A DNA stretch of 64,000 bases from Escherichia coli 042. GTDB lineage: Bacteria; Pseudomonadota; Gammaproteobacteria; Enterobacterales; Enterobacteriaceae. Location: assembly GCF_000027125.1 (NCBI RefSeq), contig NC_017627.1; one strand, 5' to 3'. Position numbers: made by a program. Below are positions 36,001 to 39,000 of this stretch, in pieces (positions within the stretch are counted from its first letter, which is position 1; each line of letters opens with the position of its first letter).

Positions 36001-39000
36001 TTTTCCAGTATCGATTTTCCGATTCGTTTGGGGGTAACCCACCGTTATATTCGTGCGGTCTTAGTGCGCTGTAATATCCAACGATATAATCCGTTATGGC
36101 GTGAGCTGCCTCGCTGAAGCTTACGTAACCCACCACCGGTATCCATTCGTTCTTCAGACTTCTGAAGAGGCGTTCCATTGGGCTGTTATCCCAGCAATTT
36201 CCGCGCCGGCTCATACTCTGCCTGATCTGGTATCGCCACACTAACTGCCGGAACTGCCTGTTCGTATAATGACTGCCCTGATCGCTGTGGAACATCACCC
36301 CGCCGGGCTTACCACGGGTTTCCCATGCCATTTCCAGCGATTTCATGGTGAGCCTGCTGTCCGGCGAGAACGACATGGCCCAGCCCACTGGTTTTCTTGC
36401 GAACAGGTCGAGAACAACGGCGAGGTACGCCCAGCGCTTACCCGTCCGGATATAGTTCACATCACCGCACCACACCTGATTTGGCTCGGTCACGGCGAAC
36501 TGCCGTTCAAGGTAGTTAGGGATAGCAACATGTTCATGACCACCACGTTTATACCGGTGAGTCGGCTGCTGACAGCTGACCAGCCCCAGCTCTTTCATGA
36601 GCCTGCCAGCAAGCCAGCGTCCCATCTGGTAGCCTCTCCGGGTTGCCATTGTGGCGATGCTTCTTGCTCCGGCCGAACCGTGGCTGATGCCATGTAGCTC
36701 AAGTACCTGACTGCGTAATACAGCCCGCCTGCCGTCTGGTTTTTCAGGACGGTTTTTCCAGTATCTGTAGCTGCTGCGATGAACCCCGAACACATGGCAG
36801 AGTGTGACCACAGGATAATGCGCTCTGAGTTTCCCGATTATCGAGAACTGTTCAGGGAGTCTGACATCAAGAGCGCGGTTGTAGATTCAATCTGTCAATG
36901 CAACACCCCTTTCAATTATCTCTTTCGGTGTTTTGAACTTCAGTGTATTTCTCGGTCTGTTGTTTAGCTGAGCAGCAACCAGATCTAGTTCATGTTGAGT
37001 ATATTGGGCAAGACATGTCTTTGCCATTCTGTTGGCTCGGTTATTAGCATCAACAGCTTTGTAATAGCGTCTGCCCCGATTACGCTGAACTTCACGTGAG
37101 ATCGTCGAAGGACTGCGATTCAGCGCAGTAGCTATCGCACGAATGCTCATTTTGGCTGACAAACCAGCTCGTATCTCCTCGCGCTCAGACAGTGTCAGGT
37201 GAGCTACAGCCCGCTTATGCTCATGGGGTTTTATGCCGCCAGTATCCCTTAACATAGTGAAGATCGTTCCGGGTTTTGAACCCAGGATATTCGCTATTTC
37301 ACTGAAGCCTGTTCCGTTCTTCCATAGTTCAAAAACAGAGGCTTTTTCCTCTGCTGTAAATGTTCGTCTCATTCAAAAAACCTCCGCAACCCCATGTTTT
37401 CACATAACTGTTGCGTTGACCAATTGAATCTACAGTAGCCTTTTTTAATATTTCATTCTCCATTTCAATGCGTTGTAGCTTTTTCCTCAGCTCACGTATT
37501 TCGATTTGTTCTGGTGTTATCGGAGAGGCTTTTGGTGTTTTGCCCTGACGCTCATCACGCAGTTGTTTGACCCATCTTGTCATTGTGGAAAGGCCAACAT
37601 CCATAGCTTTGGCGGCATCTGCCACCGTGTAGTTCTGGTCAACAACCAGTTGAGCGGATTCGCGTTTAAACTCTGCGCTGAAATTTCTTTTTTTCATTGG
37701 AGCACCTGTGTTGTTCTGAGGTGAGCATATCACCTCTGTTCAGGTGGCCAAATTCAGTGTGCCACTTCAGGTCCATTCCGTGCTTCCTCCCCACGCCCGG
37801 TCACCCTCACGCAGTTGCACTTCCTTCCGCTCGCTGTGGTCAGCTCGCGGGAGGACTTTCACCTCCAAGACTATGCTGGATAACGCTGTCGAAACGTTAA
37901 ATGCTGGCGAACGACCGGTGATACACAGTGACAGAGGTGGACATTATCGCTGGCCAGGCCGGCTGGAAAGAGTGAATGCAGCAGGCCTTATTCGCTCAAT
38001 GTCCCGTAAAGGGTGTTCACCTGATAATGCTGCATGCGAAGGCTTTTTCGGCAGACTGAAAACTGAAATATATTATGGGCGTAAATAGTTGGAAAAGTTC
38101 ATGCAGCATGTGGATGCTTACAGCAGATGGTATAACGAGCGGCGTATAAAATTATCGCTGGGTGCAGTCAGCCCTGAAATGTACCGCCAACAATGCGGGC
38201 TGGCATAATAAAGCAGTCCAGGAAATCGTCCGCATCCCCTAACGGTCAAACATCGTGGCCTTGACAGCTCCCTTGGCGCGTAGTATTGCCAACTGAATCC
38301 CCCGTCAATACGGTTCTCACCGTATGCTCACTGCTTACAATTGCCTGACAGTAGCAACCAACTGAGAGGATGCTATCTCACCTGATTTATTCAATAAAGT
38401 CTGCACAGTGGTGTTTATTTATCTTTTTAGTAACTTTGTTTTAAGTAGCATATTAACTTAATCGTAAAAGCCTCTAAAGAGGATGGAGAATGTATAAAAT
38501 GAAAATACGGAGAATTCGACTAGTACTAATATTAGCTCTAGTTTTTTTTATGAATGCACAAGCATCTGAAAATACGAGGGTATTTTCTCTACACTTAGGT
38601 GCTACCCGCGTGGTTTATAATCAACAGTCCTCTGGGGAAGCACTAGCAGTTATTAATGACCATAATTATCCGATGTTAGTTCAATCAGAAGTGCTGACAG
38701 AAGATAAAAAAGAATCAGCACCTTTTGTGATTACTCCCCCATTATTTCGACTTGATGCTCTACAATCTAGTCGTCTGCGAGTCGTCAGAATTGGAGGTAC
38801 GTTTCCGGCAGATCGTGAGACTCTACAGTGGATTTGTGTAAAAGGGATCCCGCCGAAGGCTAACGATAGATGGGCTGAAAATGATAGTAAAAATGTTCTG
38901 GATAATAAAGTTGCATTAAATATACATCTTTCAGTAACTAGTTGTATCAAATTATTTTTCCGTCCATTAGTAGTAAAAGGGCATCCTGAAGATGTAGCAG

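Follow-up and report, generated by a model that had tools for sequence, protein, structure and literature searches.

An in-frame internally deleted IS30 remnant nested in IS911 beside the aafD/aafA genes of Escherichia coli 042

A 64-kb stretch of contig NC_017627.1 of Escherichia coli 042, referred to below as the window, contains a 555-bp element (36880-37434) which is a copy of the insertion sequence (IS) IS30 nested in a copy of IS911. It is a defective IS30 derivative, without functional membership in the family and unable to transpose alone, and very probably a dead-end remnant of the IS911::IS30 composite, which is widespread. The sequences show directly how the element is built, where its internal deletion starts and ends, that the catalytic residues are lost, that it is present at one locus and that the full-length composite is abundant. 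By inference, a full-length IS30 would have been inserted first and shortened afterwards in place, leaving a product that appears to have no function. Judged from the genes around the element (pet, aafD, aafA, aggR, aap and aar), the region is an enteroaggregative E. coli (EAEC) virulence plasmid of the type carrying aggregative adherence fimbriae II (AAF/II).

Structure of the shortened IS30

The sequence TGTAGATTCAATCTGTCAATGCAACA opens the element at 36880 and the reverse complement of TGTAGATTCAATTGGTCAACGCAACA closes it at 37434. Both ends show the 26-bp imperfect inverted repeats of IS30, which match each other at 23 of 26 positions. The right repeat (IRR, 36880-36905, minus strand) and the left repeat (IRL, 37409-37434, minus strand) are complete and identical to those of the full-length 1221-bp IS30 used as reference (record L001, a copy from the chromosome of E. 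coli ATCC 11775). Exact alignment to full-length IS30 shows that, in standard orientation, a prefix of 412 bp and a suffix of 143 bp are kept (412 + 143 = 555). The lost segment corresponds to standard IS30 coordinates 413-1078, that is, 666 bp or 222 codons, and the deletion is in frame. An earlier note on this DNA had reported that both termini are present and that the reading frame is kept, naming incomplete termini or out-of-frame endpoints as grounds for dropping its description; the alignment gives complete repeats and in-frame endpoints. Among the 555 kept bases, 554 are identical to L001. The sole substitution, G1154T in full-length coordinates, changes lysine 364 to asparagine (K364N) and is private to the window copy: none of the five full-length copies compared has it. 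The best database matches lack it too; their identity peaks at 99.6%, the score of a copy that differs at G1154T alone when a 3-nt mismatch, from the overlap of the two aligned pieces, is included.

The deletion junction is located at 37022|37023, its placement is unambiguous and no base is common to both breakpoints; the junction k-mer is ATTGGGCAAGACATGTCTTTGCCATTCTGTTGGCTCGG. It lies inside a near-palindrome, GGCAAGACATGTCTTTGCC, at 37007-37025. A perfect 10-bp palindrome native to IS30, AGACATGTCT, adjoins the right breakpoint and is extended by the junction. A terminator scan flags the palindrome at 37007-37025, at chance level only, and hairpin-associated breakage at the junction may, as a speculation, be considered. 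A microhomology-driven deletion was rejected: the 5-bp motif AAAAG is found at both ends, but its register would remove 664 bp and not 666.

The element is flanked by GT on both sides (36878-36879 and 37435-37436). In silico removal of the element together with one GT restores an uninterrupted 1250-bp IS911, which gives one gap-free alignment, at 99.4% identity, to copies annotated as "IS3-like element IS911 family transposase". The GT/GT pair is therefore a true target duplication and not a 1-in-16 coincidence, and the intact duplication previously described in IS911 is borne out by this excision.

The host IS911, a member of the IS3 family, shows the features of this IS: a length of 1250 bp, terminal repeats, orfA and orfB, and the A AAA AAG frameshift heptamer. 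Its orfB-side part with terminal repeat (35963-36877, minus strand) contains an open reading frame (ORF) at 35993-36811, and its orfA-side part with terminal repeat occupies 37437-37769 (minus strand). IS30 is inserted 5 nt downstream of the heptamer and splits orfA from orfB. Since the OrfAB protein of IS911 is made by an established frameshift mechanism, the separation of the two genes would have disabled the host IS911 too. The 3-bp target duplication of IS911 itself was not found at its two borders (35960-35965 and 37767-37772), where the two flanks read GAA and GGT, so that the ends of IS911 were probably involved in a later rearrangement or recombination. The orfA reading frame is truncated after ...EILKKAT and runs on into the left end of IS30 (37329-37733, minus strand); in contigs L005 and L006, gene callers predict from it a 122-aa HTH_Tnp_1 fusion product, and all same-orientation composites should share this orfA fusion.

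Coding capacity of the remnant

The transposase gene is reduced to an ORF of 161 aa (36887-37372, minus strand), as previously noted, which encodes residues 1-117 joined to residues 340-383 with the K364N change; a GGAGG motif is found 8 nt upstream of the ATG. The product has a mass of 18.2 kDa and an isoelectric point (pI) of 10.5, and the codon split by the junction, GC|A, remains one for Ala117. Pfam detects the helix-turn-helix (HTH) domain HTH_38 (PF13936, E=1.3e-25, residues 58-98, in two stretches) in both the 161-aa and the full-length proteins, its coding region in the window being 37079-37201 (minus strand); in the 161-aa protein the second HTH stretch is weaker and further N-terminal. 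The rve domain (229-320) is detected in the full-length protein only. All three catalytic residues (D237, D293 and E327, recognised by the motifs WEGD, TWDRG and NENTNG) fall within the deleted residues 118-339. The remnant thus retains the N-terminal HTH of IS30 and lacks its DDE transposase, with DD(33)E and an rve core. The fusion between the N-terminal DNA-binding part and the C-terminal end, proposed in the earlier note, is correct, although the C-terminal tail has 44 residues and not 45; the loss of the catalytic core is equally clear, and with it the element is necessarily non-autonomous. The segment encoding the 44-residue tail (residues 340-383; 36890-37021, minus strand) starts 13 residues past E327, so by analogy with the DDE/RNase-H fold the tail is probably an isolated leftover of the catalytic core. 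A search of solved structures with the full-length transposase sequence gave no match. A promoter scan upstream of the ORF gave no consensus-like promoter, and its sole matches, at the junction itself, are at chance level.

The 161-aa protein might bind the IS30 repeats or multimerise with the transposase and act as a trans-dominant inhibitor of IS30, which is very improbable. Its ORF is open and preceded by a Shine-Dalgarno sequence, the product is basic and HTH_38 is kept. There is also a precedent in an N-terminal piece (17 kDa) of the IS30 transposase, which protects bp 9-35 of the IS ends according to Stalder (1990), as cited in PMC7780238. The N-terminus kept in the window, with 117 residues and 13.1 kDa, is shorter than this binding fragment, and a weak HTH_32 match of the full-length protein (residues 90-173) is cut by the deletion. 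The tail, probably a catalytic-core piece as said above, also counts against inhibition, and the window contains no IS30 target to regulate. An in-frame outcome has a one-in-three chance, and the other two IS30 deletions examined (below) are out of frame. Neither selection nor recurrence in independent lineages, by which an inhibitor would be recognised, was found: the protein forms a single-member cluster and the DNA is identical in the contigs inspected, which leaves no variation by which to judge selection.

An extended form of this proposal, similarly improbable, is that the HTH-only protein, expressed via IS911 read-through, binds IS30 ends and confers a plasmid-borne immunity to incoming IS30, while the 555-bp element is mobilisable whenever a full-length IS30 enters the cell. 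Neither an inhibitor nor a MITE-like role (from miniature inverted-repeat transposable element) has positive support, and a putative inhibitor role would derive solely from the kept HTH region.

Distribution of the shortened element

When a 120-bp probe centred on the junction was compared with 5,426 complete E. coli genomes and 72,556 plasmids, nothing matched it contiguously; the five matches with at least 80% coverage consist of two pieces each and fall in other IS30 copies that have decayed. Neither the JGI metagenome contigs nor the GTDB species-representative genomes contain the junction 38-mer as an exact match. NCBI lists the identical 161-aa protein under the name "IS30 family transposase" (e.g., EEV8233294.1), and it is found on 24-31 short contigs (26 according to a large protein collection and 24 in the contig look-up). 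Its 90%-identity cluster contains a single member, that is, no sequence variants are recorded. Ten of the 24 contigs were inspected individually, and the other 14 were grouped with them for a mostly shared gene neighbourhood. All ten show the same gene distribution: an aafA-like gene, a PapD-type chaperone gene, IS911 orfA, the IS30 remnant, the IS911 rve gene and a ParA-like gene. They are collinear with window positions 34499-40352 at 99.89-100% identity, and each contains the exact 559-bp sequence of the element with its duplication.

These ten contigs come from independent NCBI/ENA assemblies of different samples, and on this ground an assembly or sequencing artefact, such as a collapsed full-length IS30, was rejected; it has nothing beyond general possibility in its favour and its likelihood is negligible. 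Since the locus is single and the DNA identical in the contigs inspected, the shortened element is the product of one event and is clonally inherited. The earlier note had suggested looking for the same 555-bp derivative elsewhere; it does occur in further contigs, but always at the same locus, next to aafD/aafA. Its description as MITE-like finds no positive support here: several sites would be expected of such an element, and every contig inspected shows one locus only. The window contains no other IS30 sequence. The EAEC 042 genome paper makes no mention of IS30 or IS911.

Most of the draft contigs carrying the element end at about window position 40252, where a sequence like the terminal repeat of IS1 starts (GGTAATGACTCCAACTTATTGATAGTG, 40253 onward), which accounts for their size of approximately 5.7 kb. 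The space from IS911 to the aafD chaperone gene contains a piece of a further IS3-family element (37770-38240) with an integrase-core-like ORF at 37744-38088, approximately 90-92% identical to copies annotated as IS3 family or ISEc52. The region upstream of the AAF/II fimbrial genes thus shows a stack of IS debris.

The full-length composite and its insertion site

The full-length composite is common. A 120-bp probe across the IS30-IRL/IS911 junction, with matches counted from at least 80% coverage, identifies 1,068 records from 1,040 of the 5,426 complete E. coli genomes, with IS30 in the same dinucleotide and the same orientation. The whole composite, its IS30 at full length and in this orientation, is also found on many plasmids. 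Plasmids L015 and L016 (astA) show it with GT/GT flanks, and it is also present on the AAF/I aggregative-adherence plasmid L004 (aggA, aggR, aap). In E. coli K-12, IS911 is interrupted by IS30A (PMC9333248); compared by description only, this IS911::IS30A of the CP4-6 region looks like the same composite. Because the full-length composite is so abundant, the target duplication in the window fits an ordinary full-length insertion, and it gives no evidence that the short element itself moved.

E. coli ATCC 11775 (L001, 199-1423) contains a full-length IS30 in the same dinucleotide but in the opposite orientation, with AC/AC flanks. Insertions in opposite orientations at this IS911 dinucleotide are independent, so the site is an IS30 hot spot which has been hit more than once. 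This accords with the known targeting of near-palindromic hot spots by IS30, with a 2-bp duplication (PMC9333248); the IS911 target site is palindromic at only 6 of 12 positions. Two composites, L004 (2915-4139) and L002 (3915-5139), show imperfect flanks, GT on one side and GC on the other, which suggests mutation or conversion of the duplication after insertion.

Origin and order of events

As the most probable course, a full-length IS30, either inherited or newly inserted, would have been present at the preferred IS911 dinucleotide, 5 nt past the frameshift heptamer. A single illegitimate-recombination event would then have removed the 666 internal bp, including the whole DDE region. The deletion would have been in frame by chance, so that gene callers report a 161-aa "IS30 family transposase", and the allele would since have been passively inherited with the aafD/aafA region of the AAF/II plasmid. 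Deletions driven by the IS30 transposase begin at an IS end (PMC9333248), and since the element in the window keeps both ends, its deletion did not arise by transposition. Further IS30 copies with internal deletions are found in strain Nissle 1917 (L019, 879-1800), which lacks 238 bp plus 61 bp of one end, and in strain PI12 (L020, 818-1935), where an internal deletion of 103 bp has a junction overlap of 16 bp. Both have lost the frame and carry a frameshift annotation. As these deletions differ from that of the window and do not keep the frame, decay of IS30 appears sporadic and the in-frame outcome in the window fits chance.

Several points weigh against a deletion in place. No plasmid with a full-length IS30 at the aafD-proximal locus was found, and no empty site either: the closest AAF/II plasmid (L003) is without IS911 at this locus, and the other composites are in different contexts. 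The IS911 of the window is 8 nt away from two uninterrupted copies and 11-23 nt away from the full-length composites (11 in the best case). With six private changes in the window copy, this comparison is star-like and not decisive on a deletion in place. An already shortened element could in principle have been inserted at a hot spot used in both orientations. As for the product, its intact ORF, good Shine-Dalgarno sequence and orientation, the same as that of IS911 orfA, indicate that it may well be expressed, and the view that it has no function comes from the absence of any sign of one.

Insertion of an already shortened element, a 555-bp derivative which arose elsewhere, entered the IS911 hot spot in trans and is still able to hop, is very unlikely, though slightly less so than a role as inhibitor. 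Both 26-bp repeats are kept, together with 412 and 143 bp of the sub-terminal sequence, the 2-bp duplication is perfect, the IS911 site has received IS30 in both orientations, and the IS911 comparison leaves the window copy untied to the full-length composites. IS30cat, which has no transposase gene, integrates if the enzyme is provided in trans (PMC9333248), and by analogy mobilisation of the 555-bp element in trans would be plausible in principle. However, none of the records searched contains a second or donor copy of the shortened element. Copy-out-paste-in transposition keeps the donor copy, so insertion of the shortened element would require such a donor. All contigs inspected show one locus, and the window contains no source of IS30 transposase. 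Short-read contigs continue without a break across both IS30 segments, of 412 and 143 bp, which would suggest that these genomes contain no other IS30 copy. A relic shortened in place remains the preferred reading.

Comparison with known systems and significance

The element shares with full-length IS30 (1221 bp, with a 383-aa DD(33)E transposase) the 26-bp IRL and IRR and 554 of 555 bases, and with the full-length IS911::IS30 composites compared the 2-bp duplication, the IS911 dinucleotide and the orientation. It differs from full-length IS30 in lacking coordinates 413-1078 and the catalytic domain and in carrying K364N. The K-12 composite is chromosomal, whereas the window copy adjoins aafD/aafA on an aggregative-adherence plasmid. 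As in bacterial MITEs and internally deleted IS derivatives, the element is short, has intact inverted repeats and a target duplication, and lacks a functional transposase. Unlike bacterial MITEs, it is present in single copy at one locus and not at multiple sites, it shows no sign of amplification or movement and it keeps a 161-aa ORF. The decayed IS30 copies of Nissle 1917 and PI12 also show internal deletions, with other endpoints and out of frame.

Tn5 Inh, IS1 InsA and IS911 OrfA are, like the 161-aa protein, derived from transposases and contain a DNA-binding region without catalytic activity. They are programmed products of active elements and their inhibition is demonstrated, whereas the ORF in the window is an accidental deletion product with no active cognate element nearby. 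If the truncated protein bound IS30 ends, it would be a natural case of the accidental formation of a transposase inhibitor; nothing in the present analysis points in this direction.

Both the IS and the composite are well known, and the element is a degraded copy that public databases already list under a generic name. It has little biological weight, and its main use is an annotation correction: the ORF, publicly labelled "IS30 family transposase", merits marking as an internally deleted, non-functional remnant. The repeated use by IS30 of one IS911 dinucleotide, in both orientations, illustrates the hot-spot targeting of this IS, and the unique junction at 37022|37023 is a handy clonal marker for this AAF/II plasmid lineage.
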